From Hyphomicrobiales bacterium (GTDB lineage Bacteria; Pseudomonadota; Alphaproteobacteria; Rhizobiales; Hyphomicrobiaceae): a stretch of DNA of 52,581 nt. A program made the position numbers and the translations under genes. The notes beneath the pieces were generated by a model, which was given only the letters and a program-made list of their open reading frames with translations, did no database searches and was not told where the DNA came from. Below, one piece after another: positions 4,809-52,581 of this stretch. Where the stretch lies: assembly GCA_031419415.1 (NCBI GenBank), contig JANOKV010000503.1, forward strand, positions 1-52,581, in the 5' to 3' direction. Position 1 is the first letter of the stretch, and the number at the start of each line of letters is the position of its first letter.

Positions 4809-4813
4809 TGGTG

Positions 4814-32584: not shown

Positions 32585-32619
32585 GCGTCATGTGGCTCGA
32601 GCCCGCACGATGCCGATGG

Positions 32620-33360: not shown

Positions 33361-33475
33361 GACGTCATCCCATCACCGACGGTCCAATGCGCCTACTGCA
33401 TCGCCGTTTATCTGAAACCGCATACTCGTCGATCACCTTGAAACGGCAAGCGCAATCGCACGCCACACGTCGAAT

Positions 33476-33489
33476 TTGATTTCGATCAT
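33476..33489. promoter_or_regulatory. candidate FNR/FixK box
   Basis: TTGAT-TTCG-ATCAT matches 9/10 positions of TTGAT-N4-ATCAA. Lies in the 263-nt gap between the divergent response regulator (ATG 33360) and ORF 33624. An FNR/FixK-type regulator with an E--SR helix is encoded at 36945-37682. Confidence 0.3.
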
Positions 33490-33623
33490 GGCGATTGAGA
33501 CCTGTTTCCCATACGAAATAAGTCACGCCGTCGATCACGGCAGCCCAGCCAAGGACCAGTGTCACGACCGTCGCCAATTTTTCAGATACGGCATTTGGTG
33601 GTCGAGGAAGGCATGACCGCCAA

Positions 33624-34157: not shown

Positions 34158-34237
34158 GCTGAGATCGGCCCAGCGGTCCTGTTCATTGAGGCCAGGTCGT
34201 AAGCGCCGAAAACTTCGCCAATCAGCGGTCCTTTCGT

Positions 34238-34705: not shown

Positions 34706-34720
34706 GACGGAGATCACCAC

Positions 34721-35941: not shown

Positions 35942-36020
35942 GGCGCACGATCTTCCATGATTTCACTCATACACCGTTGCGGACCGCGCCCCGCGCATAG
36001 CCATCGAGCCGAAGAATGCC

Positions 36021-36857: not shown

Positions 36858-36944
36858 GGAAAGCCTCTGTCATGGAGTGGACGTTTGGGGTCGGCATCAG
36901 CCGTCGGCGATGGATGGGGGGCCTTACCATCCGCAGCACCGAAT

Positions 36945-37682: not shown

Positions 37683-37857
37683 GGGGGTTCCCCTGTGATC
37701 TGCATCGACGTCTACTGTTCGATGCAGCCAAGAAACCAAGCTCGGGTCCATGCCGTGTGGCAGGTCTGTGATGAATTGTAAGAATTTGTGCCAGACCGCT
37801 TGGGCAGCCGGAATTGCCCCTCCGCCCCCCGTGGTTACAGTGGTGGTGGCCGTATGT

Positions 37858-39168
37858 TTACTCTCGGAATGCCCGGTTCATTTGATCGGCGAACGGCTTG
37901 ACGAGATAGGAGAGAGCGGTGCGATCTCCCGTCGACATGAACACTTCGACCGGCATGCCCGGCACGAGCTTCAGGTCACCAACGAGGCGGCGTGACTTGT
38001 CGTCCATTTCGAGTTGAACGATGTAGTAGTTCTGTCCCGTCTTGGCCTCGATCGTCACGTCGGCAGACACTTGAATGACACGGGCGTTGAGTTCAGGTGT
38101 CTTCTGCTGCGTGAAAGCCGACAGACGAAGGACGGCGGGCCGTCCCACGATGACCTGATCGACGCTGGCTGGCGCGATGCGCGCCTGCACCATCAAGCTG
38201 TCTTCTTCGGGCACGATCAACATCACCTGCTCGGCCGCCGTGATGACACCACCCAGTGTATGCACGGCCAATTCATGGACGACACCGCCACGCGGCGCTC
38301 TGAGGTCGATACGGTGAAGTTTGTCTTTGGCAGCCGTCTCACGCTCCAGTAGCTCGGAGATTTTCGCATCTATACTGCGCAACTCACGCTGCGACTGCGC
38401 TCTCACGTTCTCGTCGAGACCAAGAATTTGCACGGCTATTTCACTGATCTGGCCGTGCGCCCGCGCGATCTGCGCCACGAGGCCACCGTGCTCCCCTCCC
38501 AGGCGCATGCTTTCACGCTCCATCGTATAGACGCGCGAAACAGTCGTGAGCTGTTTGGTGTAGAGCCGGCGCACTTCATCCAACTCATTCTGGATGATCT
38601 TGAGTTCGCCGTTCTTCGCATCGCGCTGCGATGTCAGACCCTTGATTTCTTCCCTAAACTGGTCGGCCCGGAGCCTCAACTGGTCCTTCTGGCTGTCCTT
38701 TGCGCGTCGGTTTTCCTCGAACAACCTAATTTCACCGTCTGCAGCCGCCTTCGCTTCAGCATTTTGTTCGGCGAACCCCTTCGGCCATACGACTGCCGCT
38801 AGGCCATCGCGTTCGGCCGCGAGCCGGGCGCTGCGGGCCTGCAATTCCACGAGCTGCGACGTGACGACGCCAAGCTCGGAGCGAATTTGAGTGGCGTCGA
38901 GACGAATGAGAATGTCACCGGCTTTGACGCGATCGCCGTTCTTGACGTTGATTTCAGCGACGATTCCGCCGTAGCTGTGCTGCACTTTTTTTACACTGTG
39001 CTCAACGACGAAGGTGCCGGGTGCAATTACGGCCCCCGCCAGATTGGCCAACGCGGCCCAGCCGCCCAGTCCGAAAACCAGGGCGCCCATGACGGCCGCC
39101 GAGAAAACCACAGGCCTGACGACGGAGAAGCGCCCGTTGTCTTTTGCATTCGGAATCGGACTGGTCAC
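37858..39168 (-). CDS. HlyD-family type I secretion periplasmic adaptor (MFP)
   Basis: The listed ORF starts with TTG at 39225, overlapping the upstream gene. GTG at 39168 follows GGAGAG by 6 nt. One TM, long coiled-coil region, C-terminal 'LVPGMPVEVFMSTGDRTALSYLVKPF' typical of HlyD/PrtE adaptors. Confidence 0.85.
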   Translation of the reverse strand: MTSPIPNAKDNGRFSVVRPVVFSAAVMGALVFGLGGWAALANLAGAVIAPGTFVVEHSVKKVQHSYGGIVAEINVKNGDRVKAGDILIRLDATQIRSELGVVTSQLVELQARSARLAAERDGLAAVVWPKGFAEQNAEAKAAADGEIRLFEENRRAKDSQKDQLRLRADQFREEIKGLTSQRDAKNGELKIIQNELDEVRRLYTKQLTTVSRVYTMERESMRLGGEHGGLVAQIARAHGQISEIAVQILGLDENVRAQSQRELRSIDAKISELLERETAAKDKLHRIDLRAPRGGVVHELAVHTLGGVITAAEQVMLIVPEEDSLMVQARIAPASVDQVIVGRPAVLRLSAFTQQKTPELNARVIQVSADVTIEAKTGQNYYIVQLEMDDKSRRLVGDLKLVPGMPVEVFMSTGDRTALSYLVKPFADQMNRAFRE

Positions 39169-39206
39169 TTTATGCTCTCCAAAACATGCAACGCGCCGGG
39201 TCTTGC

Positions 39207-41204
39207 TCAGACGTTTGACTGCCAACTGAGCGGTCTAATAAAATCATCGTCTTGCAGCTCGTGGCGACCGAACATTTCCAATTCGTATTCCGCTGCTTGG
39301 TCGTAATCCAAATTCCCCTGCAAGATCGTGGTTGTTTCACCGTTGAATTCTTCGTAGCGAAACTTCATTTGACCCGGCTTCGTGAATTCCGACTGCTCGT
39401 TGATCAACACGAACTTGCGAATAGTCTGATCCCCGAACGTGTCATCGATGGCACTCGCAAATTCTTTGCCAAGTTCCTCCAGATCTAGCCGGTCTCCCGT
39501 CTCGAAATCGAGAATTATATCTCTATTGTCCTTGCCTCTGCCCGTAGCAGACGACGACCGGAAGACAAAAACGTCTTCACCCGCCCCCCCTGACATTACG
39601 TTGACGGCGTCGTTGGCGATGAGAATATCGTTACCGCTCCCGCCGACGGCATTCTCGATATCCTCGAACTCGTCTTCCCCTAAATCATCGCTGCGCGCTC
39701 GGCCCTCCAGAAGATCGATCACGGCGTCTGCCATCGACGCCGAGGCATCGTAAGTATCAGTTCCGCCACCACCGTCGTACACGTCGTTGGCCTGGTCGGT
39801 ATCCGCGACAATTTCATCGTCCCCATCGCCGCCGGCAACCGTATCTGCATCCGCACCACCGCGCAGAGTGTCGTTGCCTCCACCACCATCGATGGCATCC
39901 CGGCCACCACCACCGTCGATGGCATCATTTCCATTCTCGCCGACTAGGACGTCATCCCCCTCTTCGCCAAACAACGTGTCATTACCTTCGCCACCGAAGA
40001 CAGAGTCGTTACCCGCTCCCGCGAAAACCAAGTCGTCGCCCTTCCCACCGAAGACAATGTCGTCGCCATCGCCAGCCACGATCCGGTCATCGCCGTCACC
40101 TGCATAAATCGTGTCGCCACTCTCGCGGCCGATAATCGTGTCATCGCCACCGCGCGCGACGATGATATCCATCTGGGGGGTGCCAACAATTCGGTCGTTG
40201 CCATCCGTGCCGTATAACGTCGCGTCGGCGGGCAGAACGAGGTCGAGAAAGGCCGTCTGCGCAGTCGACCCAGAACCATCGTCGACGGCGTAAGTGAATG
40301 TCACGTCCGTGGTGTCGTTGTCGGCCGGCGCAAACATCCAACCGTCCGCATGCGCTGTAAGCATACCGGAAGTTGCCTGCAGATTGACAATGCTCAGGGC
40401 ATCTCCGTCTGGATCGAGCGCATGCCTCAGCAGGTCCGCAACAGTTATCAGGATCGCTTTATTGACGACCAGATTGCCGAGCAATACCGGCGCTGCGACG
40501 ACTGGCAAACGGTTCGAGATGAACGGCGGGTAGCCACCCGTGTCGCCATCCTCATCATCGTCTTCATCGTAAGGAGAACCAGGCCCGACAGGATCAGTGT
40601 CACCGTCCGATTCAGGATCGGACGGACCACCATCGCCACTCGATCCGCCGCCACCGCCATTTTGACCGGCGCCACGCCCGCCCCCACTGCCCCCACCGCC
40701 TGCAGAACGCCCCGATCCGCCACCATTGGCCGAAGCATCATCCATGGCCCTTTCACGTGGTACGTGCTGTGGACCATCGTTGTCGTTACCGGCCAGAGCT
40801 CCAGCCGAAAATCCCGCCAGTTGCGCCTGTCCACCCATATCGTAAACCGGCTCTCCATTTTTGAGCGGGCGGCGGACAGAAGTGGGCGCTTCGTCCATTG
40901 GGCCGCTTTTTTCGCCTCCCGACGGCGTTTGATCGGGCTGCTCGGCGGAAGGATCGTCCGCCAAAGCGTACTTATGCTCGACATCAACCAGGTCGCTACC
41001 TGCCGGGACACCTTGTGGTTGCTGTCCCGCGTATGTCTTTTCACCGCCCGTCAGAACATTCTTGACGAGCAGAAATGCGGCCGCGATGACCATTCCAAAA
41101 CTCGACCGAAGCACGATCTGGCTATCGGAATCCTGACCGGGCTCATACTTCCGGCGGACCGTCCCGTCATCGTTGAATTCAACATTTTTGTTCGTCGATA
41201 GCAT
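39207..41204 (-). CDS. RTX calcium-binding protein with N-terminal hydrophobic segment, Gly/acidic linker and cadherin-like domain
   Basis: ATG at 41204 after GAAGG (TTG 41225 alternative). 'FGMVIAAAFLLVKNVL' hydrophobic helix, poly-Gly/Asp linker, 'DPDGDALSIVNLQATSG...TFTYAVDDGSG', ~14 GGxGxD nonapeptides. C-terminal 'EDVFVFRS...DIILDFETGDRLDL' module. Confidence 0.85.
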   Translation of the reverse strand: MLSTNKNVEFNDDGTVRRKYEPGQDSDSQIVLRSSFGMVIAAAFLLVKNVLTGGEKTYAGQQPQGVPAGSDLVDVEHKYALADDPSAEQPDQTPSGGEKSGPMDEAPTSVRRPLKNGEPVYDMGGQAQLAGFSAGALAGNDNDGPQHVPRERAMDDASANGGGSGRSAGGGGSGGGRGAGQNGGGGGSSGDGGPSDPESDGDTDPVGPGSPYDEDDDEDGDTGGYPPFISNRLPVVAAPVLLGNLVVNKAILITVADLLRHALDPDGDALSIVNLQATSGMLTAHADGWMFAPADNDTTDVTFTYAVDDGSGSTAQTAFLDLVLPADATLYGTDGNDRIVGTPQMDIIVARGGDDTIIGRESGDTIYAGDGDDRIVAGDGDDIVFGGKGDDLVFAGAGNDSVFGGEGNDTLFGEEGDDVLVGENGNDAIDGGGGRDAIDGGGGNDTLRGGADADTVAGGDGDDEIVADTDQANDVYDGGGGTDTYDASASMADAVIDLLEGRARSDDLGEDEFEDIENAVGGSGNDILIANDAVNVMSGGAGEDVFVFRSSSATGRGKDNRDIILDFETGDRLDLEELGKEFASAIDDTFGDQTIRKFVLINEQSEFTKPGQMKFRYEEFNGETTTILQGNLDYDQAAEYELEMFGRHELQDDDFIRPLSWQSNV

Positions 41205-41221
41205 GGCCGCCTTCGCAATTC

Positions 41222-42988
41222 TCAAGCCGCCGGACGCGGGATTTGTTGCACGAGACCCGTTTGAGATTTCAATACCTGAGAGAGAATTTCATCTTTGGGA
41301 CCGAACGCTGACAGTTTGCCGTTTTCAACCACGCCCACCATGTCGACGGCCGCCAAAGCACTGGGACGGTGAGCGATGACCACGGCTATGCCACCGCGCT
41401 TGCGCACACCGACAATGGCTTGGGTCAGCGCAGCCTCTCCTTCTGCGTCCAAATTCGAGTTGGGCTCGTCGAGCACAACGAGGAAGGGATCGCCGTAGAG
41501 CGCACGGGCCAAGCCAATCCGTTGACGCTGGCCTGCGGACAAGGCTGTACCATTGGGCCCGAGTTCAGTTTCGTAACCATCCGGCATGCGGACAATCATC
41601 TCGTGCACGCCGGCGGCTTTTGCTGCGGCGAGAATTTTGGCGCCGTCGGGTGAGGGATCGAGACGGCAGATGTTCTGCGCGATCGTCGCGTCCAGCAGCG
41701 AGATCTCCTGTGGCAGATAACCGATGTAGCTGCCGAGAACGTCCACGGGCCACTGCGTGATATCCGCGTCATCCAGACGAACGTTGCCTCGCACGAGCGG
41801 CCACACTCCGGTCAATCCCCGCACGAATGACGATTTGCCGCCACCGCTTGGCCCAACAATGCCCGCAGCCTGTCCAGCTTGAAGCGAAAGCGTCACGTCA
41901 CTGAGCACGACCGTCCCATTGCTCGGCGCAGCAACCGTTACCCGCTCGACTTTCAGATTTCGGGTCGGGCGCGGCAATTCTACGTTGGGTGCGGCGTCAT
42001 CGATCGCCGTCAGGGTTTCTGTCAATCGGGCATAGGATTTCCGCGCGGCGACGACGCCTTTCCATTGACTGATGGCCAAGTCCACCGGGGCAAGCGCCCG
42101 CGCCGATGCGACAGAGGCAGCAATGATCGCGCCGGCCGTCAGGTCTCCACCGATCGTCAAATAGGCGCCCACGCCCAAGACGGCCGATTGCAAGATCATA
42201 CGAAGAACCTTGGAAATACCACTGAAGGTTCCTGCCACATCATTCGTCTTTGTCTGCAGCGCCAAGTGTTCGCCGTTGATCTTGTCGAAGCGGGCGATAG
42301 CGCGTCCCGAAAAGCCCATCGCGCGAATGACGTCGGAGTTGCGCGCATGCGAGTCAGCCATAACGGCGCGCGCCACGGCGGCCTGCTGGGTGGACGCGCT
42401 GTGTTTTTGGGTGAGAATTTCGGTTAGCAGCGTCAGCGTCGTGAGGATCAGTGCACCGGCGATCGTCAGCATGCCGAGCCAAGGATGCAGGCAGTAGACG
42501 AAAATTAGATAGAGGGGCATCCACGGCAGATCGAAAAGGGCCATCGGCCCCTGCCCACCCATGAAATGGCGCAACGTATCGACGTCACGGCCCCGCTCCA
42601 TCGACTCCGCCGTCGAAAACCCGTAACGGGGCATATCGATGGTGACCTTATGGGCCAGAGGCGCCAGGTAATGGTCGAGTTTGGCGCCGACGCGCACCAG
42701 AATGTGCGAGCGGCTCACATCGAGCAATCCCTGGAAGCAGTAGAGCCCAATCGCCAAGCCGGAGAGCGCAATCAACGTCGGGATGCTTTGACTGGTTAGC
42801 GCCCGGTCATAGACCTGGAGCATGTAAACCGAGCCCGTGAGGGCCAGTATGTTCACAATGCCGGACACCAGAAATAGGTAAGCGATAACCCTGCGCAATC
42901 CGCCGACTTCGGAAATGGGCGTCTTTATTTTCGAATACCGTTTACGAAATGATTTTTTACGCATGCGCCACATCCCCAAACTCGTCAT
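41222..42988 (-). CDS. type I secretion system permease/ATPase (PrtD-type, no C39/CLD domain)
   Basis: ORF opens with TTG at 43045. ATGs at 42988/42973/42964 give ~580-588 aa. Six TM, Walker A 'GPSGGGKSS', signature 'LSAGQRQRIGLARAL', Walker B 'VVLDEPNSNLD'. Confidence 0.9.
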   Translation of the reverse strand: MTSLGMWRMRKKSFRKRYSKIKTPISEVGGLRRVIAYLFLVSGIVNILALTGSVYMLQVYDRALTSQSIPTLIALSGLAIGLYCFQGLLDVSRSHILVRVGAKLDHYLAPLAHKVTIDMPRYGFSTAESMERGRDVDTLRHFMGGQGPMALFDLPWMPLYLIFVYCLHPWLGMLTIAGALILTTLTLLTEILTQKHSASTQQAAVARAVMADSHARNSDVIRAMGFSGRAIARFDKINGEHLALQTKTNDVAGTFSGISKVLRMILQSAVLGVGAYLTIGGDLTAGAIIAASVASARALAPVDLAISQWKGVVAARKSYARLTETLTAIDDAAPNVELPRPTRNLKVERVTVAAPSNGTVVLSDVTLSLQAGQAAGIVGPSGGGKSSFVRGLTGVWPLVRGNVRLDDADITQWPVDVLGSYIGYLPQEISLLDATIAQNICRLDPSPDGAKILAAAKAAGVHEMIVRMPDGYETELGPNGTALSAGQRQRIGLARALYGDPFLVVLDEPNSNLDAEGEAALTQAIVGVRKRGGIAVVIAHRPSALAAVDMVGVVENGKLSAFGPKDEILSQVLKSQTGLVQQIPRPAA

Positions 42989-43062
42989 TGGTTCCCTGGT
43001 TGGAACCGGGGAGGCACGGGGGTGCCTTCCCGGTTCTTTCTGCAATTTCCGTGCCGTTAACT

Positions 43063-46000
43063 TTAGACGAAGTTGGCCTTGTCGAGGTCAGTAACGCCGA
43101 CGACTCTGATCTGGAAGTCCGCTTCGGTATCGTTGTCGGTGTTGCCCTGGATGAGCGTGTCACCACCAACGATTTCCAACCGAAGACTACCCGCCATCGT
43201 GAAGTCGGCGCTCATGGCTGTATCGAAATCGAACGTCAGTCCCGAATAGAGCGGTCCCAGGTCGATCCTGTCGCCAGAAGAAAACCCTTCGATGCTGTCG
43301 CCATTTGCCGCCTGGGCCGACCGGAAGACGAACACGTCGTGACCTGCACCACCGTTCAACACGTTGGCTGCATTGCTCGCGTAGATCGAATCGTTGCCGG
43401 AGCCACCGACGACGTTTTCGATCGAGCTCAACGTATCAGCGCCCGATTCCATGCTGGAGGCCGAGCCGATACCCACCGTTCCAAGATCGACGATCAGGTT
43501 GGACGTGACCGCTTCGAAGTCGAGGGTGTCGATGCCGGCATCACCGTGGTAAACGTCGTTACCGTCACCGACAGCAGCAAAGATGGTGTCGTTGCCGGCC
43601 CCAGCATGGACCACATCGCGCCCGGCTTCGCCGAAGATCAGGTCATTACCGGCATCCGCGAACACCGTATCATCCCCGGACCCCGCCAGAACCGTATCGT
43701 CACCGGCGCCAGAAAGAATGAAGTCGTTCCCGCCATTACCGAAGACGAGGTCGTCACCATTTCCTCCGACCAGATGATCGGCGCCCGCGCCGCCCACCAG
43801 GGTATCGTTGCCATCGAGGCCCAGAAGGGTGTCGTCACCGTCTTCGCCCGTCAGGATGTCATGCCCTGCACTGCCGACCTTCGTGTCGTTTGCGCTGCTG
43901 CCGAACGACGTGATCGGACCAGCCGGCACACTCGGAGAGGGAACAACCACCGGATCGACCGGCGGCGGCGTGGGGTCGATCACGGTGTCGGCTTGGCCGA
44001 ACTCCACAATGTGGGGCGCCTGGGACGGCGTGGGCGGGGTCGCGTAGGTGAACGAACCCGTCGTCGTATAGAGGGTCGACGTCCCGTCTCCGTTGTCGGC
44101 TTCGATGCAATCGGCCAGGTTATCGCCCGGCGCAAGCTCGATCACGTCCTGCGGCCGCATGGTTCCGATGATGGTGTCGTTGCCACCTTTGCCGTTGAAA
44201 ACAATGCGATGCGCCGACGTAAGTCCGGAAATGTCGATCACGTCATTTCCACTCGAGCCGTTGATCGTGATCGTATTGAGCGCGAGCGATGTGGTTGCGA
44301 AGTCTCCGATGATTTGGATGGTATCGCCACCCACGGCGCCGCCAGCAGCCACGACGGGGTCTGCGTTGATCACCAATTCCTCGATGTTGTCGAGTTCGGC
44401 GATGACCGCTTCGCCCGTCAGACCGTCATCCCGCGTCACAACGATCTCGGTTCCGGCAGCCAATGGCCCGAATTGAATCACCTGTACAGCCGTCAAACTT
44501 GCCACGGTGTAGATTCGGAAGGTATCGCCACCGTCGCTGCCACGAACATCGAACGTGTCGCCGATTGCGGTGTTGCCGCCGCCATCGATCACGTCTCGGC
44601 CATCGCCGACCCGCCAGCCGATGATGTCATCGCCATCTACGCCGTCCGGCAGGCCCGCCGCCGGGTCGACACCATCACCGAAGATAATGTCGTTCCCCAC
44701 ACCACCGTCGATCGTGTCGTCGCCGCCCAGACCGATGATGGTATCGCCGAAATCCGTCCCCACGAGGGCATCGGCGTTCGCCGTACCGACGATTAGGTCG
44801 CCATCGAGAATGTCGGCCACCGAGAACAGGGTCACGCCAGCCGGCGTCGGGTCACCCGCGCGCAGGCTGTCGATCAAAGCCTGAACGTCGGCATCGGCCA
44901 TCGGGACATCGATGATTAGGATCGTCTCGATCCCGATCACGGCATCTTCCTGCACGGCCGCAATATCGACGACTTCCAGAATTCCGTCAGGCGTGACGAC
45001 GAATGCGAAGTTGTCCAGCGGACCGAAGAAGACCGCAACATCACCCAGTCCGGGGATCGTATTGGCGCCACCTTCCAGAATGTCATTGCCAGGACCGCCG
45101 ATGAGGATGTCGTCACCGGCCAGCGCGAGGATCTGGTCGTCACCGGCCAGGGCGTTGATGAGGTCGGCGCCGTTCGTGCCGACGAGAATGTCGGCGCCTG
45201 CCGTCGGCGCGCCCGTTGCGGCAAGAGCTACTGGCGCTGTCGGCACAGACTGAACGATCTCTGGCATACCCTCCGCGTCGCGGAAGCTTCCCACGACACG
45301 CAGGCTCAGCCCATCCAAACCGAGGTCGGCCGTGATCACCAGCGTTCGACCGATCATCTGATCGCCGGCCGCATTGGCCACGGGCGCCCAATCGCCGGCG
45401 CCAGGTGTCTGTTCGAATTCCCAAGCGAAGGTCATCGTTGTGATGTCGACCAAACCGCCTGGGTTATCGGCGTCAATCACCGTCCCGATGTCGACTGTCA
45501 GTGTGTCACCGATATTGATGCCGGGAGCACCCTGGTCGGGCTGAACGATCGAGATGTCCAGCATCCCCTGGGCCATCGCATTGCTCAGCGCTGGATCGAG
45601 GAACACGCGTTCATCGGCGAACTGGAGGACTTCGACGTTGCGGACCAGATCGGTGCCGTCGGCCAACCGTAGCCCACCGCCTCCGCCGCCACCACCCGGA
45701 GGCGTGTGGGTGATCGAGATGAAGCCGTCGCCGTCGATATCGACACCATTGGCGCCTGCATTGGCACCCTCGATCGCGTAGTTCGCCCAGATATCCCCGA
45801 ACACGGCGACGTCGATGTCGCCAGCATTGTTGGAGCTACCATCGCTGTTGAGGATTTCACGCACGGCCTGCAGTTGGCCAGGGTTGATCGTGCCAGCGCG
45901 CATGAGTTCGTCGAGGCCTTTACCGAGCCAGGCCGAAGGCGTCGCATCGCCAGCCGTGATCTTGCTGGTCAATGAGTCGACGGTCGCCAGCTCGGGACCC

Positions 46001-49000
46001 GATCCATCCTTGTTCGCGTGGATTGAGATCCGCACGTTCAACCAGGCGTCGCCATCGATGTAGTCGTTGCCAAGGTTGCCGCGAATGGTGTCACTGCCGA
46101 CACCACCCAGAATGATCTCGCCGCCACCGTTGGCGTCCGATTCGAAGACAACATCGGTACCTACACCGGAGTCGGCGATATTCAGCAGCTCGCGCAGACC
46201 CGTGATGCGATTGACGCCATCCTGCGTCAGCGCGTCCGTGAACCCTTCACCAGCGAGCAGCTTGGCCGCGCCCACCAGATGGTCGTTGTTGTTCCAACCG
46301 GAAAGGCCTTCGACCGAGTCGAAGCGATCGCGCAGGATCAGCGCCATGCGGGTGTCGAAGGGCCGGATCCCCAAATCGCTGTCGGCCGCGTTAGGATCTC
46401 CTTTGTGGATCGCCCAATCGAAGCCATCCATCCCGTTGTTGCGCTGAATGCCGGCGCTCTGCACCATGATGTCGTCGCCGTTTTCGGCGTCGTAGTCGGT
46501 GTCGTTGCCCTGACCGTTCATGATATCATGGCCGATGATGGACGAGTTGAAGAACAACTCGGAGTTCTCGCCGGCAATGATATCGAAGCCTTCGTCGCCT
46601 TCGATCCAATCGTTACCTTCATTGCCCAGAAGGAAGTCGTTCGACGTGCCGCCCAGAACCCAGTCGTCGCCGGGTCCTGCAAAGACCTCGGTGGTGTCGG
46701 TGACGCCCATGAGGAAGTCGTTGCCTTCGCCGCCGAACAGGAAGTCGAGGCCGTGACCGTTGACGATCACGTCGTTGCCTGCTTCGCCGCGCAGGAAATC
46801 GTCACCGAAGGGATCTTCGATGATGTCATCGCCTTCACCGCCAAACACCTGGTCGGCTTCCATTCCGGCGTTGAGATAATCGTCGCCGGCATCGCCCCAG
46901 AGCGTATCGATGCCCTTGTCGCCGTATAGCTTGTCGTTGCCTTCGGTGCCGCCGAGAACGGCGTGCTCGCCGCCGAAGAACTTGAGAATACCGCCGTCCC
47001 TAATTGCATGGCCGTCAGCATCAAGGACAACATTCCCGTCCGCATCGACGCGCTCAATGCCGTCCTGACGAAAAACCTTCGCCCCAACCAACGCCTCGTG
47101 CATCGGATCACCCCAGGTCGGATCATTCCCGGGAGCATCGCCGTTGTAATCCTCCTGCGCCACGAGGCTGTCGAGCTCGAGGATCAAGTCGGGAACCGAC
47201 ATGGAAAGCGCCGGCAAGTGGGTCGCATGCAGATCACCAAAATCGGTGTTGCGCATGATGATATCGGAGAACGTGTTGGCCTCGAGAATGTTGAGCAGGT
47301 TCATGCCCTGCGTACGGCTCAGGTAATAGAACCGGTCGCCATTCTGCAGGTGCTCCATCTGGTATTCGAAGACGAAGTTGAAGGTCGAGCCGAGCTGGCC
47401 GCCGAACTCCATCAACTTCTCGGCAAGACCACCGATCCACATATCGACAGCGTTGAGACCGCCGAGGCTGTCGTTGTTGGACCCAGCGCCGTCCGCAGCG
47501 TAAGTACCCGTAGCATTGAGAAAGTCGACACGGTCGTCCGGCGCACCGATGCCACCGAAGACCAGTTTCATCGCCGCATCGCGCTTGCCGTCGAGCGTCG
47601 TCGCCGCGACGATGCTGGCATGCGTGCCATACGCCGCAATGAAGTTGATGATGGAGATCGGATTCTTGAGGTTCTGCGCGAAATCGAGCCAACTCGTGTA
47701 AGGCTTGAGCTGCGGGTCGCCGCTCATGGCATAGATCTGATCGCGTGCATCATTCAGCGTCGGCGAGCCCGTTTCACGACCGCGCGCGATATTAATTGCG
47801 GCGAGGTCAAGCGGAAGGCCAACGAGATTGTTGCGCAACGCTTCGACCACGAACTCGTCGATCTCATTGCCGACCTGACGTGACATGCCGCGGATAATGG
47901 CGCCGGTTGCTGCTTCAATGTCTGCGCCGCTTTCCATGAACATCTGAGGGTTGAGGAACGCGGCGATCAACCCGATCTGCTGTGCCCCCGCAACCGACGC
48001 ATCGGCGTCACCCACCACCTGGAGATTGGCGTCGAGACGATCGACGGTATCGGTCAGCATGGAGTGTCCGAAGCGGTATACGACGTGCGCGAACTCGGCC
48101 AGGATCGAAGGGTCGAGGTCGGCGGAGTTGGTGAAGACGAACGGATCGACGTTGATCTGGATGCGGCGTGCGAATTCCTCGAACACCATGTGCTGATACT
48201 GCATCTCGGTGACGAACCGAGCCGCCTGGAACAGGCGCTCGCCATCCCACACGAGATTGGCGATTTCCGTCGCATCGGTCGGGACCGCTGCGACATCGAC
48301 GATCAGCCATTCATTCAGGAATGCCAGATCGCCGCCGGCCAGGATCGTCGCTTTATTGACTTCCACGAGCCGGTTGTGCTCGGCGTGGAAGATGTAATGC
48401 ACGGTGGTGAGACCGATGTTTTCATTGCCGCGCCCATCACCCGTGATGAAGTGCGCCCCCAGCATTTCGTCGTCGTAGGTGCTGGCCAGGCCGTCATCGC
48501 CGACGCCCGGATCGCTATCCGCGATCTGGACAATTCGGCCCTGTGGTCCAGATGGACCGTCCGGGTCATATGTGCCTGGCGCTGCGTGATGCGCGATATC
48601 GTTGAGGAAGGCGTGACCCGTCCGGATCACCGTGGTCGTGGCGAGATCGACCGGATTTTCCGGCGTTCCCGAAATCCACGCTGTGGCCAAACCGTTTGCG
48701 TCTACGGCGGTGACGACCTGCGCATACCCCGTGACGAGATCAGGAATGAATTTGCCGTACGGGTCGGTCAGCAGCAGCGGCACGTTATGCACATCGAAGT
48801 CGCTGAACGCGATGCCGAGGAACTGCAGCGCATGCGCTTTGACGTGGGTCCAGTCGGCGATGCTGCCATCCGGGTTGTCGAGCAGATGACCTGTGGCGAC
48901 GGTTTTCCCATCGACGGTGGTGTATTCACGCAGGAATACCTGATGCGAGGCCGACGACGTGTAGGTCTGGTTCTGGTCGACAAACGGGGTCGTGGTGTTC

Positions 49001-52000
49001 TCCGTGTTGCCCTGCGCATCGAACAACGTCGTGCGAGTCACGGCCATGAAGCGCAGACCAGCGGGGAGATCATCGGCATTCCCGAAGATGTGGTCGGCTC
49101 CTGCAATCAACGGGTCGTCAGCCTGCAAGGGAATGTAGACCGTGCCGTTGCCACCCTTAGTGACGAGGTCGAGGCCGTGATCGAAAAACTGACCGAAGAG
49201 CGTCATCCAGCCGCTGTTGGCGGGCGACAATCCGATGTCGGGCGACCGGTGCTCGATGGCGATGGAGCCATCGGCGGAGACGTGCAGACCGCCTTCGGTG
49301 ATGAGGTCAGTCAACGCGGATAGTGACGCGGCGGCGGCCACATCGGCATTGTCGCTGACACTCGTTGCAGCAGCAAGATCGATCTCTTCTTGTCCCACGG
49401 CTGCGCTCGCGCCATCCAGGATGCCCTGAGCGGTGGCAATTGCGGCCACCAAAGCCTCTAGCGGCGCCTCGGCAGCGGCGAGCGCTGCGGCGGCGTCGAC
49501 TTGCGCTGTCACGGCATTATCGCGGCTCGTCGTCGCGGCGACCTCTGCGTCCTCGGCGGCGAGACGCGCAGCCGTCGCATTCCCGAGATCCAACTCAGCT
49601 TGAACGAAATTACTGTTGGCCGTTTCAAAATTTCCAGCCGCTACTTCGGCCGCGATTGTTGCGGCGCCCAGAGCTGACTGAGCACTTACGTTTGCGATCT
49701 GAGCTGTAGCCTGTGCCGTCTCCGCCGCATCGAATTCTCCTTGCGCAGTTACCGCAGCCGCGTTGGCTGCAACTGCGGCATCCGCCGCAGCATTAGCCTC
49801 GGCGGTTTCCTGGGCCACGAGGCCGTTGGCGGCATCGAGCGTCCCGGCGGCCAAACCGGCTGCCGTCGCGGCATCCGACAGCGCGGCCTGGGCTACGTCA
49901 TCGGCCGCTATGGCGGCCGCTTGTACTGCAACCGCAGCCGCCAATTCTGCCTGCGCCAAAGCGGTCGCAGCATTGGCCCCAACACTGGCAGCCGTCGCGT
50001 CGGCAAGTGCAGTCGTTGCTAGCATGACAGCGGCGTCGGCGGCTGCCAGATCGGAAGCCGCGAAATTTGCCGCTAGCGTGGCATTCTCCAAGTCGGATTG
50101 GGCGTTGGTGGCGACTAACTGCGCCGCGTCTCTCACTGAAACAGCAGCTGCCAATTCACTTTGCGCCAAAGCGGTTGCAGCATTGGCTGCAACACTTGCC
50201 ACCGTGGCAGCAGCGAGTTCGCTGGTTTCCTGTGCCAAAACAATGTCGGCAGCGGCGAGGACTGCGGCTGTCGTGGCGGCAGCAACCGTGGCAGCATCTA
50301 GCGCGAATTGGGCATCGGCATGTACCGTCGCCGCTCCAATCTGCGCCACTTGCGCCGCGTCAAATTCGATCTGAGCCGCAGTAGCTGCCGTAGTGGCCGC
50401 ATCACTCACAAGCGTCGCAGCGGACAGGGCGCTCGCCGCCAGCATCGCGGCGGCGTCAGCGGCGTCGAGAGCGATGGTTGCCGTTTCGGCAGCGAGTGTG
50501 GCAGCTGTCAGTGCAGATTGCGCAGTCGTATTGGCGGTCAGCGCAGCAGACTCCGCCAATACGGCAGCGTCGTAGTCTTGCCGTGCCAAAGCAGTTGCAG
50601 CGTTCGCGGCACTGCTCGCGGTCGTCGCGGCTGCTAGCTGCCCCGTTTCGAGCGCCAAGGCAGCGTCGGCAACATCGAGCGTTGCGGCTGCCGAGCTGGC
50701 AGCGGTTTGTGCAGTCGCCAGAGTCTCTTGGGCTGTGGTGTGGGTAGCCTCTGCCGAAATCTGCACCAATGCAGCCGCATCGAATTCGGCCTGCGCTGTA
50801 ACAAGAGCGGCATTCGCGGCACTGCTCGCCGCCATTGCGGCGTTGAGGTTGATCGTTGCCAGCGCCACTGCGGCATTGGCAGCCGCGAGGTTGGAAGCCG
50901 CCGCGTCGGCGGCGGTCATGGCATCCGCCAGAGCAGTCTGAGCAGCGGTGTTCGCCGCCTCGGCCGCCAACTTCGCAACTACAGCCGCATCGTATTCGCC
51001 TTGCGCCTGAGCGGCCGCCAAAGTGGCAGCTGCGCTCGCCGCCGTCGCAGTATCGAGTGCGGTCGTTGCCTGGATCACAGCGGCGTTTGCAGCGCTGAGG
51101 TTTGCATCCGCAATCCCCGCAGCCGAAGTGGCGGCCGTCAACGCGGCTTGTGCCGTACCGTTCGCAGCAAACGAAGTCGCCTGGTTTGTTACGGCGGTAT
51201 CGTATTCGGACTGCGCGAGGGCCTCTGCTGCGACTGCCGCGACACGATCCTGCGTCGCAGCAGTGAGTGCCAATTCTGTCTGCGCCAAGACGTCCAGAGC
51301 TGAAACGACATTCGCATCGGCAACCGCATCGGCCGACTGGGCGGTGCTGACCGAAGCATTCAATAGGGGAACGTTATTCAGCGCTGTTGTTTCATTCTCC
51401 GTCGCCAAATTGAAGGCGTCGAAAGCCGCTTCAATCTCGGCTTGCTCGACGGTGCCGTTGCTATTGAGCGACGTTTGCAAAACCGTCAAATTGGTCAGCA
51501 ATGTCGCCGCGTTCGATGCAACGAGTTGCACCGCAGCAAGATCACCGGCCGTCACGTTCGGCCCCAGAACGAGTGCATCGACGACCGCATGTGCAGACGC
51601 CAAGGCTGTCGCAGCGGCGCTCACGGCAGTGTTTATGTTGCTCAGGTCTTGTGCGCTGACAGCGCTGTTGACCGGAAGCAACGAAAACAGATCGGCCGTG
51701 GCGTTTTGCAGCGCTACCGCATCTGCGCTTGCACTCGGGGCGAGTGCGGCGGCAGCCGTATAGGCGTCCAATGTCGCTTGAGCGGCTGTCGCGCTTGCTT
51801 GCGCAGTTGTCGCGTTGGCGCTGGCGGTGGCGTGGCTCTGAATGGCGGCCGTTTCTGCATCTTGCGCCGCAACGCGTACAGCCGTCGCTGTGGCAAGCTC
51901 GGTCGCCTCCAGCGTCAATGCGGCATCTGCCGTGGCGAGGGTGGCAACCGCCATATCGGCAGCAGTTGTGGCTGTCGCCAGCGCGGACACGGCCGCGCCG

Positions 52001-52581
52001 TTAGCCGACACGGCGGCGGACTGTGTCAAAACGGCAGCGTCTAATACGCCCTGCGCTGCATTCACAGCAGCAATGGCTTCAGCGGCGGCAGTCGTTGCGG
52101 CGGCAAATTGCGCCGTTTCCTGCAGCAACACACCGTTTGCAGTGGCAAGGACGCCCTCTGCCGAGTTAGCGGCGGTGGTTGCAGCCGTCATAGCAGACAG
52201 GGCACTGCCATTGGCTGCTTCGGCGGCAGACTGCGCCAATTCCGCAACTGCCAACACGCTCTGCGCCGATGTTACTTCCGCGACGGCGGCAGCGCTCGTA
52301 GTCGTTGCGGCAGCAAGCTGTCCCGCTTCCAGCGCGAGGGCGGCGTTGGCGATCCCAAGGGCAGCAGCCGCTTCGCCGGCAGCGATCGTAGCAGTCCCCA
52401 GAGCAGACTGAGCATTCGTGTTTGCAGTCGCAGCCGCAGACTGCGCCAAAACTGCGGCGCCATATTCTCCCTGCGCCAAGCTCAATGCAGCACTGGCTGC
52501 ATCACTCGTCCCCGTCGCGGTGGCGAGAGCGGCCGCTTTTTGCACAACATCAGTGTTGGCATCTGCGAGAGCTGTAGATGC
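43063..52581 (-). CDS. giant secreted haem-peroxidase / RTX repeat protein, 5' end beyond window (>3,172 aa)
   Basis: Single uninterrupted frame. The listed GTG at 52545 is not the start: the 12 upstream codons to the window edge are open and continue the same Ala-rich pattern (ASTALADANTDV). Contains 70-aa repeats, an animal-haem-peroxidase domain, several GGxGxD blocks and an acidic/hydrophobic C-terminus. Confidence 0.9.
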   Translation of the reverse strand, partial: ASTALADANTDVVQKAAALATATGTSDAASAALSLAQGEYGAAVLAQSAAATANTNAQSALGTATIAAGEAAAALGIANAALALEAGQLAAATTTSAAAVAEVTSAQSVLAVAELAQSAAEAANGSALSAMTAATTAANSAEGVLATANGVLLQETAQFAAATTAAAEAIAAVNAAQGVLDAAVLTQSAAVSANGAAVSALATATTAADMAVATLATADAALTLEATELATATAVRVAAQDAETAAIQSHATASANATTAQASATAAQATLDAYTAAAALAPSASADAVALQNATADLFSLLPVNSAVSAQDLSNINTAVSAAATALASAHAVVDALVLGPNVTAGDLAAVQLVASNAATLLTNLTVLQTSLNSNGTVEQAEIEAAFDAFNLATENETTALNNVPLLNASVSTAQSADAVADANVVSALDVLAQTELALTAATQDRVAAVAAEALAQSEYDTAVTNQATSFAANGTAQAALTAATSAAGIADANLSAANAAVIQATTALDTATAASAAATLAAAQAQGEYDAAVVAKLAAEAANTAAQTALADAMTAADAAASNLAAANAAVALATINLNAAMAASSAANAALVTAQAEFDAAALVQISAEATHTTAQETLATAQTAASSAAATLDVADAALALETGQLAAATTASSAANAATALARQDYDAAVLAESAALTANTTAQSALTAATLAAETATIALDAADAAAMLAASALSAATLVSDAATTAATAAQIEFDAAQVAQIGAATVHADAQFALDAATVAAATTAAVLAAADIVLAQETSELAAATVASVAANAATALAQSELAAAVSVRDAAQLVATNAQSDLENATLAANFAASDLAAADAAVMLATTALADATAASVGANAATALAQAELAAAVAVQAAAIAADDVAQAALSDAATAAGLAAGTLDAANGLVAQETAEANAAADAAVAANAAAVTAQGEFDAAETAQATAQIANVSAQSALGAATIAAEVAAGNFETANSNFVQAELDLGNATAARLAAEDAEVAATTSRDNAVTAQVDAAAALAAAEAPLEALVAAIATAQGILDGASAAVGQEEIDLAAATSVSDNADVAAAASLSALTDLITEGGLHVSADGSIAIEHRSPDIGLSPANSGWMTLFGQFFDHGLDLVTKGGNGTVYIPLQADDPLIAGADHIFGNADDLPAGLRFMAVTRTTLFDAQGNTENTTTPFVDQNQTYTSSASHQVFLREYTTVDGKTVATGHLLDNPDGSIADWTHVKAHALQFLGIAFSDFDVHNVPLLLTDPYGKFIPDLVTGYAQVVTAVDANGLATAWISGTPENPVDLATTTVIRTGHAFLNDIAHHAAPGTYDPDGPSGPQGRIVQIADSDPGVGDDGLASTYDDEMLGAHFITGDGRGNENIGLTTVHYIFHAEHNRLVEVNKATILAGGDLAFLNEWLIVDVAAVPTDATEIANLVWDGERLFQAARFVTEMQYQHMVFEEFARRIQINVDPFVFTNSADLDPSILAEFAHVVYRFGHSMLTDTVDRLDANLQVVGDADASVAGAQQIGLIAAFLNPQMFMESGADIEAATGAIIRGMSRQVGNEIDEFVVEALRNNLVGLPLDLAAINIARGRETGSPTLNDARDQIYAMSGDPQLKPYTSWLDFAQNLKNPISIINFIAAYGTHASIVAATTLDGKRDAAMKLVFGGIGAPDDRVDFLNATGTYAADGAGSNNDSLGGLNAVDMWIGGLAEKLMEFGGQLGSTFNFVFEYQMEHLQNGDRFYYLSRTQGMNLLNILEANTFSDIIMRNTDFGDLHATHLPALSMSVPDLILELDSLVAQEDYNGDAPGNDPTWGDPMHEALVGAKVFRQDGIERVDADGNVVLDADGHAIRDGGILKFFGGEHAVLGGTEGNDKLYGDKGIDTLWGDAGDDYLNAGMEADQVFGGEGDDIIEDPFGDDFLRGEAGNDVIVNGHGLDFLFGGEGNDFLMGVTDTTEVFAGPGDDWVLGGTSNDFLLGNEGNDWIEGDEGFDIIAGENSELFFNSSIIGHDIMNGQGNDTDYDAENGDDIMVQSAGIQRNNGMDGFDWAIHKGDPNAADSDLGIRPFDTRMALILRDRFDSVEGLSGWNNNDHLVGAAKLLAGEGFTDALTQDGVNRITGLRELLNIADSGVGTDVVFESDANGGGEIILGGVGSDTIRGNLGNDYIDGDAWLNVRISIHANKDGSGPELATVDSLTSKITAGDATPSAWLGKGLDELMRAGTINPGQLQAVREILNSDGSSNNAGDIDVAVFGDIWANYAIEGANAGANGVDIDGDGFISITHTPPGGGGGGGGLRLADGTDLVRNVEVLQFADERVFLDPALSNAMAQGMLDISIVQPDQGAPGINIGDTLTVDIGTVIDADNPGGLVDITTMTFAWEFEQTPGAGDWAPVANAAGDQMIGRTLVITADLGLDGLSLRVVGSFRDAEGMPEIVQSVPTAPVALAATGAPTAGADILVGTNGADLINALAGDDQILALAGDDILIGGPGNDILEGGANTIPGLGDVAVFFGPLDNFAFVVTPDGILEVVDIAAVQEDAVIGIETILIIDVPMADADVQALIDSLRAGDPTPAGVTLFSVADILDGDLIVGTANADALVGTDFGDTIIGLGGDDTIDGGVGNDIIFGDGVDPAAGLPDGVDGDDIIGWRVGDGRDVIDGGGNTAIGDTFDVRGSDGGDTFRIYTVASLTAVQVIQFGPLAAGTEIVVTRDDGLTGEAVIAELDNIEELVINADPVVAAGGAVGGDTIQIIGDFATTSLALNTITINGSSGNDVIDISGLTSAHRIVFNGKGGNDTIIGTMRPQDVIELAPGDNLADCIEADNGDGTSTLYTTTGSFTYATPPTPSQAPHIVEFGQADTVIDPTPPPVDPVVVPSPSVPAGPITSFGSSANDTKVGSAGHDILTGEDGDDTLLGLDGNDTLVGGAGADHLVGGNGDDLVFGNGGNDFILSGAGDDTVLAGSGDDTVFADAGNDLIFGEAGRDVVHAGAGNDTIFAAVGDGNDVYHGDAGIDTLDFEAVTSNLIVDLGTVGIGSASSMESGADTLSSIENVVGGSGNDSIYASNAANVLNGGAGHDVFVFRSAQAANGDSIEGFSSGDRIDLGPLYSGLTFDFDTAMSADFTMAGSLRLEIVGGDTLIQGNTDNDTEADFQIRVVGVTDLDKANFV
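43510..43905 (-). repeat. C-terminal RTX nonapeptide block of the giant protein
   Basis: 'GSAGHDILTGEDGDDTLLGLDGNDTLVGGAGADHLVGGNGDDLVFGNGGNDFILSGAGDDTVLAGSGDDTVFADAGNDLIFGEAGRDVVHAGAGNDTIF', followed by 'HDVFVFRS...GDRIDLGPL' and the C-terminal signal region. Confidence 0.85.
46450..46980 (-). repeat. RTX nonapeptide (GGxGxDxUx) block 1 of the giant protein
   Basis: 'GGTEGNDKLYGDKGIDTLWGDAGDDYLNAG...GGEGDDII...GEAGNDVI...GGEGNDFL...GNEGNDWIEGDEGFD'. Confidence 0.8.
47235..49290 (-). other. animal haem peroxidase (peroxidase-cyclooxygenase superfamily) domain within the giant protein
   Basis: 'TLFGQFFDHGLD' distal Gln/Asp/His, 'FVDQNQTYTS' Ca-site-like block, 'GRGNENIGLTTVHYIFHAEHNRL' distal Arg/Glu, 'VVYRFGHSML' proximal His, 'GDRFYYL' near the domain end. 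Confidence 0.85.
49324..52581 (-). repeat. in-frame 210-nt (70-codon) tandem repeat array, at least 15 units, continues past window
   Basis: Units start with Q(G/S/A)E(Y/F)DAA.. and end with ..A(T/A)ALA. Residues 25-1074 of the listed ORF divide exactly into 15 x 70 aa, including three degenerate units (235-444). Confidence 0.85.

Follow-up and report, generated by a model that had tools for sequence, protein, structure and literature searches.

The stretch of DNA considered here, hereafter the window, comprises 52,581 nt of contig JANOKV010000503.1 (assembly GCA_031419415.1) from a Hyphomicrobiales bacterium. Four co-directional open reading frames (ORFs) occupy its minus strand between positions 37858 and 52581, and encode a giant cargo protein that joins a haem peroxidase domain to repeats-in-toxin (RTX) blocks, an ATP-binding cassette (ABC) exporter, a second RTX protein and a HlyD-type adaptor (Table 1). 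There is little doubt that the giant belongs to the family of the bacterial peroxidases MopA and PehA and that it is linked to a type I secretion system (T1SS), and we consider it likely that the product made and exported by the operon is a haem peroxidase of giant size, acidic and calcium-dependent, that works outside the cell. The original prediction for this DNA had already placed here four such genes, forming a type I secretion operon with a haem peroxidase-RTX giant as cargo, and profile searches bear it out. Matches above the curated cut-offs were obtained for PF03098 (An_peroxidase; 175.5 bits against a cut-off of 25, E 2e-51) and PF00353 (HemolysinCabind; 187 bits, 10 stretches) on the giant, for TIGR01842 (type_I_sec_PrtD; 670.9 bits against 510.15, aligned over residues 50-590 of a 607-aa ORF) on the exporter, and for TIGR01843 (type_I_hlyD; 356.2 bits against 208.65) on the adaptor. 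Another family named in that prediction, PF08548, was not detected in these proteins at E ≤ 0.01.

The frame of the giant stays open from 52581 to 43066, that is for 3,172 codons, and closes with a TAA stop at 43063-43065, in agreement with the more than 3,170 residues first reported. Because no stop lies upstream in frame, the gene runs off the end of the window; residues of the giant are numbered here from that end (52581), the true N-terminus lying outside. The ABC ORF spans 41222-43045 (607 aa) and the HlyD ORF 37858-39225, and their likely starts are an ATG at 42988 and a GTG at 39168, respectively; for the second RTX protein an ATG at 41204 is the likely start, which gives the 665 aa expected from the earlier reading. 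All three starts have a Shine-Dalgarno-like sequence and leave intergenic gaps of 74, 17 and 38 nt. With the earliest possible TTG starts, a first gap of 17 nt would remain and the next two junctions would overlap by 4 and 19 nt, so the spacing depends on the start codons chosen: the tight packing originally described stands, and the overlaps appear only with the TTG starts. The 74-nt gap between the cargo stop and the ABC start contains a GC-rich hairpin, and the 96-nt stretch around it (42975-43070) folds as RNA at -34 kcal/mol (z -2.1). This structure may make the transcript of the cargo gene more stable, or reduce read-through from it into the genes of the exporter.

Table 1. Features of the T1SS-peroxidase locus and its neighbours in the window (aa, amino acids; pI, isoelectric point; residues of the giant are counted from position 52581)
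Feature	Position	Strand	Basis or remark
Giant cargo gene, 5′-incomplete	43063..52581	-	open frame; 3,172 codons, ~318 kDa seen, pI 4.05, 1 Cys
Alanine-rich coiled-coil region of the giant, aa 1 to ~1085	49327..52581	-	autocorrelation, repeat alignment A4, register, AlphaFold2
Heptad register break, aa 281-420, with four of the region's five prolines	51322..51741	-	register and proline positions
Peroxidase domain after the insertion, aa ~1105-1870	46972..49269	-	PDB sequence search, alignment A1, AlphaFold2/Foldseek
Post-peroxidase region, aa 1871-2835	44077..46971	-	RTX nonapeptide blocks alternating with non-RTX modules
Proline-rich linker, aa 2836-2890	43912..44076	-	sequence inspection
C-terminal RTX block and secretion module, ending ...GNTDNDTEADFQIRVVGVTDLDKANFV	43066..43911	-	likeness to the C-terminus of the second RTX protein
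GC-rich hairpin, 14-bp stem, no U-run after it	43003..43036	-	between cargo stop and ABC start (74-nt gap)
PrtD-type ABC permease/ATPase	41222..42988	-	588 aa from ATG; TIGR01842, ABC_membrane, ABC_tran
Second RTX protein	39207..41204	-	665 aa from ATG, pI 4.05, no Cys; Cadherin_5, Big_9, RTX
N-terminal hydrophobic helix of the 665-aa protein, aa 36-53, FGMVIAAAFLLVKNVLTG	41046..41099	-	mean Kyte-Doolittle 2.07 over 17 residues
HlyD-family T1SS periplasmic adaptor	37858..39168	-	436 aa from GTG; TIGR01843, HlyD_3, Biotin_lipoyl_2
Crp/FNR-family regulator gene	36945-37751	-	106 nt downstream of HlyD, same strand
Universal-stress-protein gene	36021-36857	-	after the Crp/FNR gene
Amino-acid permease gene	34721-35941	-	after the universal-stress-protein gene

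The peroxidase domain of the giant aligns, in a PDB sequence search, with a cyanobacterial peroxidase (8s6c), with peroxidase A of Dictyostelium (DdPoxA, 6erc) and with lactoperoxidase (LPO), myeloperoxidase (MPO) and eosinophil peroxidase (EPO), and its motifs agree residue by residue with those of 8s6c and 6erc. The motifs described for the family, namely a distal Q-x-x-D-H, an X-R-X-X-E and a proximal His with its Asn partner (PMC4420034), are all present. GQFFDHG (aa 1130-1136) contributes the distal Q1131, D1134 and H1135, GDGRGNEN (aa 1381-1388) the distal R1384 and E1387, YRFGHSM (aa 1502-1508) the proximal H1506, and AINIARGR (aa 1595-1602) N1597 and R1600, with a motif similar to a Ca site, TTPFVDQN, at aa 1197. 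When the giant is aligned with 35 database relatives (the 36-sequence alignment A1) all of these residues prove invariant apart from Q1131, D1134 and H1135, whose conservation is at least 90%. An AlphaFold2 model of the catalytic domain built on this alignment reached a predicted local distance difference test score (pLDDT) of 66, and Foldseek returned only peroxidase-cyclooxygenase folds at the top of its list (8s6c, DdPoxA, MPO and LPO). The domain also contains a beta/alpha sub-domain of ~125 aa that is missing from the cyanobacterial peroxidase 8s6c. It lies at ~48570-48944 (aa ~1213-1337; pLDDT 86-96), between the Ca-site-like and distal-Arg motifs, where the giant has ~158 residues and 8s6c ~31, and it is conserved across the bacterial family.

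Relatives of this domain are common. A scan of one genome per species detected them in at least 591 species genomes, and the best 80, mostly from Alpha-, Beta- and Gammaproteobacteria, are 51-63% identical to the giant in the domain; the loci of these 80 were searched by tblastn with the window proteins. The same scan returned no close relative of the window itself. Many alphaproteobacterial relatives (L054, L005, L031, L062, L078 and others) carry within the same ORF, ~4-5 kb further downstream, a second peroxidase-like domain that has diverged much more (28-35% identity); in the visible 3,172 residues of the giant no second domain was found.

Ahead of the peroxidase domain, the giant shows an unusual composition, with 23-47% alanine in each 100-residue block from aa 1 to ~1085. 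Autocorrelation peaks at lags of 70, 140, 210, 280 and 350 residues, and 11 clear units of 70 residues (aa 36-245 and 456-1015) can be aligned with no indel and with 40-56% identity (alignment A4). Positions 1, 8, 15, 22, 29, 36, 43, 57 and 64 of these units, spaced at every seventh residue, hold Ala in all or nearly all cases. In a heptad reading, Ala fills one core position nearly everywhere, and the other one cycles through L-V-L-S-x-Y/F-Q-N-L-A. The heptad register continues without interruption through aa 1-275 and again through aa 421-1075, and the intervening proline-containing break (aa 281-420) is a candidate for the tip of an antiparallel hairpin. The AlphaFold2 prediction consists of two long helices (pLDDT 82), for which the nearest solved folds, none of them at E ≤ 0.001, are antiparallel coiled-coil hairpins from chemoreceptors, SMC arms and the receptor-binding hairpin of colicin E3/E9. 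No array was found at the DNA level in this region by Tandem Repeats Finder, which, together with the 40-56% identity among units, points to old, diverged repeats and rules out a recent expansion or an assembly collapse. When 1.84 billion proteins were searched with a profile built from the 70-residue repeat, one marginal match came back, judged unrelated, and by its sequence the repeat is an orphan. The marginal match (P0124) is a putative lipoprotein of 407 aa built of 14-residue repeats (LMTAQGELDTANSN), whose short motif recurs within the window repeat (AQGE.D.A...ANSN), probably by convergence.

The place of this region within the protein becomes apparent from complete relatives. Those of a Devosia metagenome-assembled genome (MAG; L027), a Thiobacillus MAG, a Nitrospira MAG and Aurantimonas coralicida begin with a conserved segment of ~150 residues (...LRTVDG...DPRIISNLIVDQT...), which corresponds to positions 2-36 of the Pfam peroxidase model; after it comes a stretch rich in alanine, from about 120 up to several hundred residues long, and the next segment (...SADGSITIEHRSADIGLSPPNSGWMTLFGQFFDHG) is nearly identical to aa 1100-1136 of the giant. 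This position, between the ~150-residue segment and the distal-His helix, indicates that the alanine-rich region is inserted in a loop within the peroxidase domain, and that the true N-terminus of the giant lies outside the window. The original image of a peroxidase presented on a long stalk thus has to be revised: what was taken for a stalk would be a coiled coil lying inside the catalytic domain rather than ahead of it at the N-terminus. Because the ends of an insertion must meet, the Ala-heptad pattern suggests an antiparallel hairpin, probably of about 100 nm. If aa 281-420 were its tip, the descending arm would have ~655 residues (about 100 nm at 1.5 Å per residue), and about 380 residues of the ascending arm plus the ~150-residue N-terminal segment would lie beyond the window. 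Conservation ahead of the distal-His helix is confined in the relatives to the last ~40-60 residues, and the repeat and “tip” segments, used as BLASTP queries, found no match in the N-terminal regions of the 80 relatives, so that the equivalence with their alanine-rich stretches rests on position and composition rather than on proven homology. In one Hyphomicrobiaceae MAG (L022, 962-7318) the peroxidase ORF starts just before the distal-His helix and lacks the ~150-residue N-terminal segment; the gene may be truncated or split there, or the MAG may contain an error. An oversized Ala-heptad coiled coil of exact 70-residue repeats within an enzyme domain is new and, at roughly 100 nm if it forms a hairpin, a structural oddity that merits direct study.

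So repetitive a protein, encoded by a gene cut by the window end, could raise the suspicion of an assembly artefact or of a decaying pseudogene made of collapsed or expanded repeats. We find this hardly credible, as the gene runs for 9.5 kb without a stop and keeps 59-63% G+C along its length, repeat collapse is unlikely for 70-residue units that are 40-56% identical and form no DNA-level array, the heptad register is held over hundreds of residues without an indel, and all the catalytic residues are intact.

The original prediction also contemplated halide or pseudohalide oxidation, matrix cross-linking or antagonism. Spelled out as a rival explanation, this would be an undescribed extracellular oxidative weapon or matrix cross-linker that oxidises halides or pseudohalides in the manner of LPO and MPO and is kept at a distance from the cell by a long N-terminal stalk. 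The giant does conserve the distal His/Arg pair and the ester-forming Asp and Glu of the halide-oxidising mammalian peroxidases, and LPO, MPO and EPO are among its closest solved structures. However, the position directly after the distal Glu, occupied in MPO by a Met specific to that enzyme, holds an Asn in the giant (GDGRGNEN), and the stalk is at odds with the inserted position of the alanine-rich region in complete relatives. Moreover, the family is already described, and its characterised members show Mn(II) oxidation, superoxide production or generic peroxidase activity, not halogenation (PMC6247904, PMC9518985). Halide chemistry and antagonism have no specific support, and we hold this explanation to be very doubtful.

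The ~1,300 residues that follow the peroxidase domain comprise RTX blocks, conserved non-RTX modules, the proline-rich linker and a C-terminal module, and 20 nonapeptide-like motifs were counted in the giant. None of the non-RTX modules of aa 1871-2835 matched a Pfam family, and the first ~600 aa of this region are conserved in 77 of the 80 related loci. In an NCBIfam scan, the C-terminal module of the giant falls on the C-terminal portion of the model for serralysin. Compared over their final 200 aa, the two RTX proteins are 37% identical along 187 aa (E 3e-30), including the DVFVFRS...GDR(I/L)DL signature, which substantiates the common post-RTX module that had been noticed in both. The exporter of the operon is an ABC protein of the PrtD type, as proposed, without an N-terminal C39 or C39-like domain.

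Gene order and C-terminal modules, compared across the relatives, tie the cargo to the exporter. In 46 of the 80 loci an ABC gene akin to that of the window is found no more than 10 kb from the peroxidase domain, and by tblastn the order peroxidase / ABC / cadherin-RTX / HlyD recurs in 12 loci, A. coralicida included. Where the ABC protein is at least 58% identical to that of the window, a gene of 365-1,001 codons stands between ABC and HlyD in all 15 loci with enough sequence, plus L026; where it is at most 52% identical, HlyD follows within 45-269 nt of ABC and there is no partner gene (25 of 25 loci; Fisher p 2.5e-11 for partner gene against ABC class, uncorrected for phylogeny). The C-terminal module of the peroxidase changes along with the subtype of the ABC exporter encoded next to it: it reads ...GN.D....DF.I.V.G...L..DF in loci of the first class, and mostly ...TLVTI.G..GG.I.L.GV...T..DF.L in those of the second class. 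The second RTX protein of the window bears the module of the first class. This co-variation is the best evidence that the adjacent exporter is the export route, usable by both RTX proteins, and it favours the earlier view that both are substrates of that exporter. For peroxidases of this family, a signal module that changes with the exporter subtype is a concrete handle, as comparative evidence for export through the adjacent T1SS.

Some of these loci deserve a closer description. In A. coralicida (L054) a two-domain peroxidase gene, which fits the published MopA of a congener, is followed by an ABC gene (66% identity) and then by a cadherin-RTX gene with an N-terminal helix. The plasmid pAtCFBP5877a of A. 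tumefaciens shows the same four-gene order in its annotation, as “peroxidase family protein”, “type I secretion system permease/ATPase”, “cadherin-like domain-containing protein” and “HlyD family...”. The closest exporter genes occur in Hyphomicrobiaceae MAGs (ABC 76-78% identity; 78% in L022), and a megablast search of 30000-43100 against plasmids gave only matches of ~100 nt to response regulators.

The gene found between ABC and HlyD encodes in the window the 665-aa protein, which starts with 35 hydrophilic residues, followed by a hydrophobic helix, a Gly/Asp/Pro-rich linker of ~180 aa, a cadherin-like domain at aa 238-325 (PF17892 Cadherin_5, 60.9 bits against a cut-off of 26.5; Big_9 also matches), RTX repeats at ~335-550 (110.6 bits) and the C-terminal module common to the giant. 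The same layout occurs in 17 related loci. In all 17 orthologues examined the hydrophobic helix lies at aa 30-47, usually with a basic residue after it that belongs to a Y-[LIV]-[KR]-S-[FL]-like motif, and 62-87% of the 120 residues that follow are disorder-prone; the first RTX repeat of the longer orthologues appears at ~aa 314-386. An exact look-up of the 665-aa protein in public assemblies gave no record, and a linker-free chimera of its N-terminal part, used as a homology query, recovered three short cadherin-domain fragments only.

Shorter versions of the partner also exist. The one on the Fuscovulum ytuae plasmid NZ_CP124537.1 (L082) is complete at 357 aa and keeps the helix and the linker, the RTX repeats and the secretion module being absent, and another short orthologue (L040) has 3 nonapeptide-like motifs only. 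The constant part of the family is thus the N-terminal helix with its linker, since it is kept in all orthologues, while most members resemble T1SS substrates. On the same Fuscovulum plasmid, a gene with a multicopper-oxidase domain and a gene for a SCO-family copper chaperone (2901-6295) are found about 5-8 kb upstream of the cluster of peroxidase, T1SS ABC and short helix-bearing genes, so that two putative classes of Mn oxidase sit side by side on one plasmid.

Two roles can be envisaged for the 665-aa protein, and travelling as a co-substrate of the exporter is somewhat more likely than acting as an anchored accessory or tether. In the latter case, which is possible but which we would not put first, it would be a component of the exporter, with the helix in the inner membrane and the long disordered linker spanning the envelope, by way of the secretion channel or through the periplasm, so as to tether, dock or display the peroxidase. 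Such a role would agree with the constancy of the helix at aa 30-47 and of the disorder-prone stretch in 18 of 18 proteins examined, with the short versions that have few or no RTX repeats (L040, L082), and with the strict association of the partner gene with the closer ABC class (15/15 against 0/25 loci, with the p value and the phylogenetic reservation given above). Most full-length orthologues carry RTX repeats, however, and most of the C-termini displayed bear the subtype-specific module of the cognate peroxidase, which is the signature of a secreted substrate. Hydrophobic helices, in addition, do pass through the T1SS in RTX toxins. Whatever its role, a gene placed between ABC and HlyD and associated only with this ABC subtype, whose product has an N-terminal hydrophobic helix (a predicted membrane anchor) and a disordered linker, is new. 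It marks an alphaproteobacterial subtype, and could explain surface retention or the site of oxide formation.

The core of the system, on the other hand, is described and common, its new parts being the oversized Ala-heptad insertion and the helix-bearing partner gene. Long peroxicins, that is, peroxidase-RTX fusions, have been published as MopA, the Mn(II)-oxidising haem peroxidases of Aurantimonas manganoxydans SI85-9A1, Erythrobacter sp. SD-21 and P. putida GB-1 (PMC6247904; PMC4420034). Purification or expression work has identified MopA-type proteins as Mn(II) oxidases or as producers of superoxide; in Roseobacter sp. AzwK-3b, the extracellular animal haem peroxidases act through superoxide (PMC6247904). 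In one survey MopA was the most frequent putative bacterial Mn oxidase, with 1,227 of 2,197 homologues (bioRxiv 10.1101/2022.11.10.515945). With more than 3,172 aa and RTX repeats, the giant falls among the very long ORFs (1,600-3,300+ aa) that define long peroxicins. A second characterised member, PehA of P. putida KT2440 (PP_2561, formerly PepA), has 3,619 aa and two domains, both with peroxidase activity, and is flanked by the T1SS genes pehBCD (PP_2558-2560) for an outer-membrane protein, an adaptor and an ATPase (PMC9518985). In a strain that over-expresses it, PehA was located on the cell surface by immunodetection, and it is, in the words of its authors, “likely exported” by the T1SS; extra copies of pehA improved survival and root colonisation, a gain in rhizosphere fitness, and expression of pehBCD was induced by H2O2 (PMC9518985). 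Given these publications, and relatives in at least 591 species genomes, we cannot maintain the original view of an undescribed system, nor the opinion that its chemistry, targets and secretion route are unstudied, since Mn(II) oxidation by MopA (PMC6247904) and the activity, location and T1SS genes of PehA (PMC9518985) are on record. No paper in the literature searched gives genetic proof that the export of long peroxicins depends on a T1SS; there, the route is inferred.

From these elements, the working of the operon can be outlined. The PrtD-type ABC exporter and the HlyD adaptor would recognise the uncleaved C-terminal RTX/signal module of the adjacent cargo, recruit a TolC-type channel encoded elsewhere, and thread the unfolded protein out with its C-terminus first, after which extracellular Ca2+ would fold the RTX beta-rolls. 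The peroxidase domain would bind haem via H1506, with the distal H1135/R1384 pair and the ester-forming D1134/E1387 intact in the sequence, and would most likely carry out, outside the cell or on its surface, one-electron oxidations like those of its relatives, namely the oxidation of Mn(II) to Mn(III), directly or via superoxide, and the consumption of H2O2. Manganese as the substrate is a tentative guess from the relatives, to which we give a little less than even chances. The giant may remain at the cell surface, as PehA does, and two helices of its alanine-rich region would pair into a very long coiled coil set into a loop on the surface of the catalytic domain. The cadherin-like RTX protein of 665 aa is conserved as the partner of this exporter subtype and would probably be a co-substrate. 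Of all this, the gene content, the family membership, the catalytic residues, the conserved gene order and the co-variation of signal module and exporter are results of the analysis, whereas export as such, the loading with haem, the substrate oxidised, the geometry of the hairpin and the part played by the partner protein are inferences.

Several observations weigh against this outline and temper our confidence in it. The gene of the giant is cut by the window, so that its N-terminus and any retention module there are out of view. The AlphaFold2 model of the catalytic domain is of moderate quality, its proximal-His helix scoring below 50. The strict motif of the PERCAL insertions known from the peroxidase domain, G-x-D-G-x-x-[GN]-[TN]-x-D-D (PMC3396595), was not found in the giant, which has one degenerate copy (GADHIFGNADD at aa 1161); as PERCAL insertions are common in the family but vary in number, this absence is compatible with membership. 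The chemistry of the relatives is itself disputed, being described as H2O2-stimulated, NAD+-dependent or superoxide-mediated (PMC6247904). Mn oxidation is not assignable from sequence. The short partner orthologues that lack, or almost lack, RTX repeats and the secretion module (L082, L040) speak against a cargo role as the conserved role of the partner gene. Finally, Pfam scans of the window ORFs of at least 400 aa, which covered them apart from a 404-aa ORF at 28784-29998 (+), found no OEP/TolC family, and the earlier statement that the window lacks a TolC-type gene holds to that extent; the 404-aa ORF faces the TctB/TctC genes on the other strand and is unlikely to be a true gene. In PrtD-class systems the TolC-type gene is often unlinked, and none is annotated beside the Agrobacterium pAtCFBP5877a locus either.

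A different emphasis would assign the giant a role like that of PehA, as a surface-attached enzyme mainly devoted to H2O2 removal or to the modification of exudates, for protection from oxidative stress in a host or particle niche, instead of manganese mineralisation. This alternative, for which we see perhaps a minor chance, recalls the surface location of PehA, the gain in survival and root colonisation and the H2O2-induced pehBCD (PMC9518985), and a universal-stress-protein gene and a Crp/FNR-type regulator gene do lie directly downstream of the operon in the window. Nevertheless, loci of the Pseudomonas type use the other exporter subtype and have no partner gene, while the four-gene order of the window recurs in Aurantimonas, a MopA genus. 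Neither Crp nor Usp homologues were found in any of 82 related loci; both genes are therefore probably outside the conserved cassette, and were rejected as candidates for conserved regulators. In any case, a role of this kind is compatible with Mn oxidation.

Going beyond the exported peroxidase that we favour, the alphaproteobacterial form of MopA could be a three-part surface machine: an Alacoil-like antiparallel hairpin of ~655 residues per arm (about 100 nm), built of the orphan 70-residue repeat and emerging from a loop of the catalytic domain; a partner always found with the exporter subtype, whose N-terminal helix would remain in the inner membrane and whose long disordered linker would thread the envelope; and a head with cadherin-like and RTX parts, displayed by that partner, which would dock or tether the peroxidase or nucleate the mineral product. 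We think this quite unlikely, although, if true, it would represent a new mode of retaining a T1SS product at the cell surface. With regard to a retention of the LapA type, no LapG- or LapD-type family was present among the neighbouring ORFs scanned, and the complete relatives L027 and L054 start with peroxidase-domain sequence, the corresponding end of the giant lying outside the window. The interest of the question stems from the link of MopA-type peroxidases with Mn-oxide mineral formation, extracellular superoxide and rhizosphere fitness.

The remaining surroundings of the operon are an ordinary alphaproteobacterial metabolic context. Genes for a TctCBA tripartite tricarboxylate transporter lie within 27073-33360, beside those for a hybrid histidine kinase that contains a PAS domain (30248-32584, +) and for a response regulator of the OmpR type (32620-33360, -), and genes for a Rieske oxygenase, an FAD-linked oxidase, a hydantoinase and ABC importers are found further upstream.

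Among the nearest known systems are the MopA proteins and the peroxidases of Roseobacter sp. AzwK-3b, with their peroxidase-cyclooxygenase domain joined to haemolysin-type calcium-binding repeats in 2,000-3,800 aa (PMC6247904). The A. coralicida protein is 53% identical to the giant in the domain and shares its four-gene order, and the MopA of Erythrobacter has a single peroxidase domain, as the giant does. The Aurantimonas-type protein, in contrast, has a second, divergent peroxidase domain where the visible part of the giant has one, and an alanine-rich insertion of about 120 aa against at least 1,085 aa in the giant, which also departs from the family in missing the canonical PERCAL motif. 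PehA and PehBCD resemble our system as a giant RTX haem peroxidase beside a dedicated T1SS, the Pseudomonas loci being ~55% identical in the domain. PehA differs in having two peroxidase domains and an outer-membrane gene in its cluster, and the Pseudomonas loci in having the ABC and HlyD genes on the opposite strand with no gene between them, an ABC only ~40-44% identical to that of the window, and a C-terminal module of the other type.

The exporter itself resembles the T1SS of the PrtD/AprD/PrsD class, which includes those of serralysin-type proteases and the rhizobial PrsDE, in its ABC protein without an N-terminal peptidase-like domain and in its HlyD-type adaptor. Likewise, the substrates are acidic, poor in Cys and equipped with RTX repeats, and their uncleaved signal at the C-terminus closes with an acidic residue and then hydrophobic ones, a rule reportedly due to Ghigo and Wandersman in 1994. 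Against that class, the cargo of the window is 6-7 times larger than the proteases, and an extra conserved gene stands between ABC and adaptor. For this partner, the nearest described proteins with a cadherin-like domain, likened here by description, are the Rap/CHDL lectins. These calcium-binding lectins of Rhizobium leguminosarum are substrates of PrsDE, the Rap proteins sharing at least one cadherin-like domain and acting in the biofilm matrix (PMC9298526). The 665-aa protein is likewise paired with an exporter of the PrsD/PrtD class, and its family is set apart by a hydrophobic helix at the N-terminus, a long linker of disordered sequence, a block of RTX repeats and the placement of the gene within the T1SS operon. 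We know of no description of these four traits for Rap proteins. The alanine-rich region, lastly, with Ala at one core position of its heptads throughout and a predicted long hairpin that has them as its nearest folds, is comparable to antiparallel coiled coils of the Alacoil type, a concept that is said to go back to Gernert et al. in 1995 and is represented by the colicin E3/E9 hairpin, and to the long hairpins of chemoreceptors and SMC proteins. There is no sequence homology with any of them, and the coiled coil of the giant differs in being inserted in an enzyme and in being far longer.

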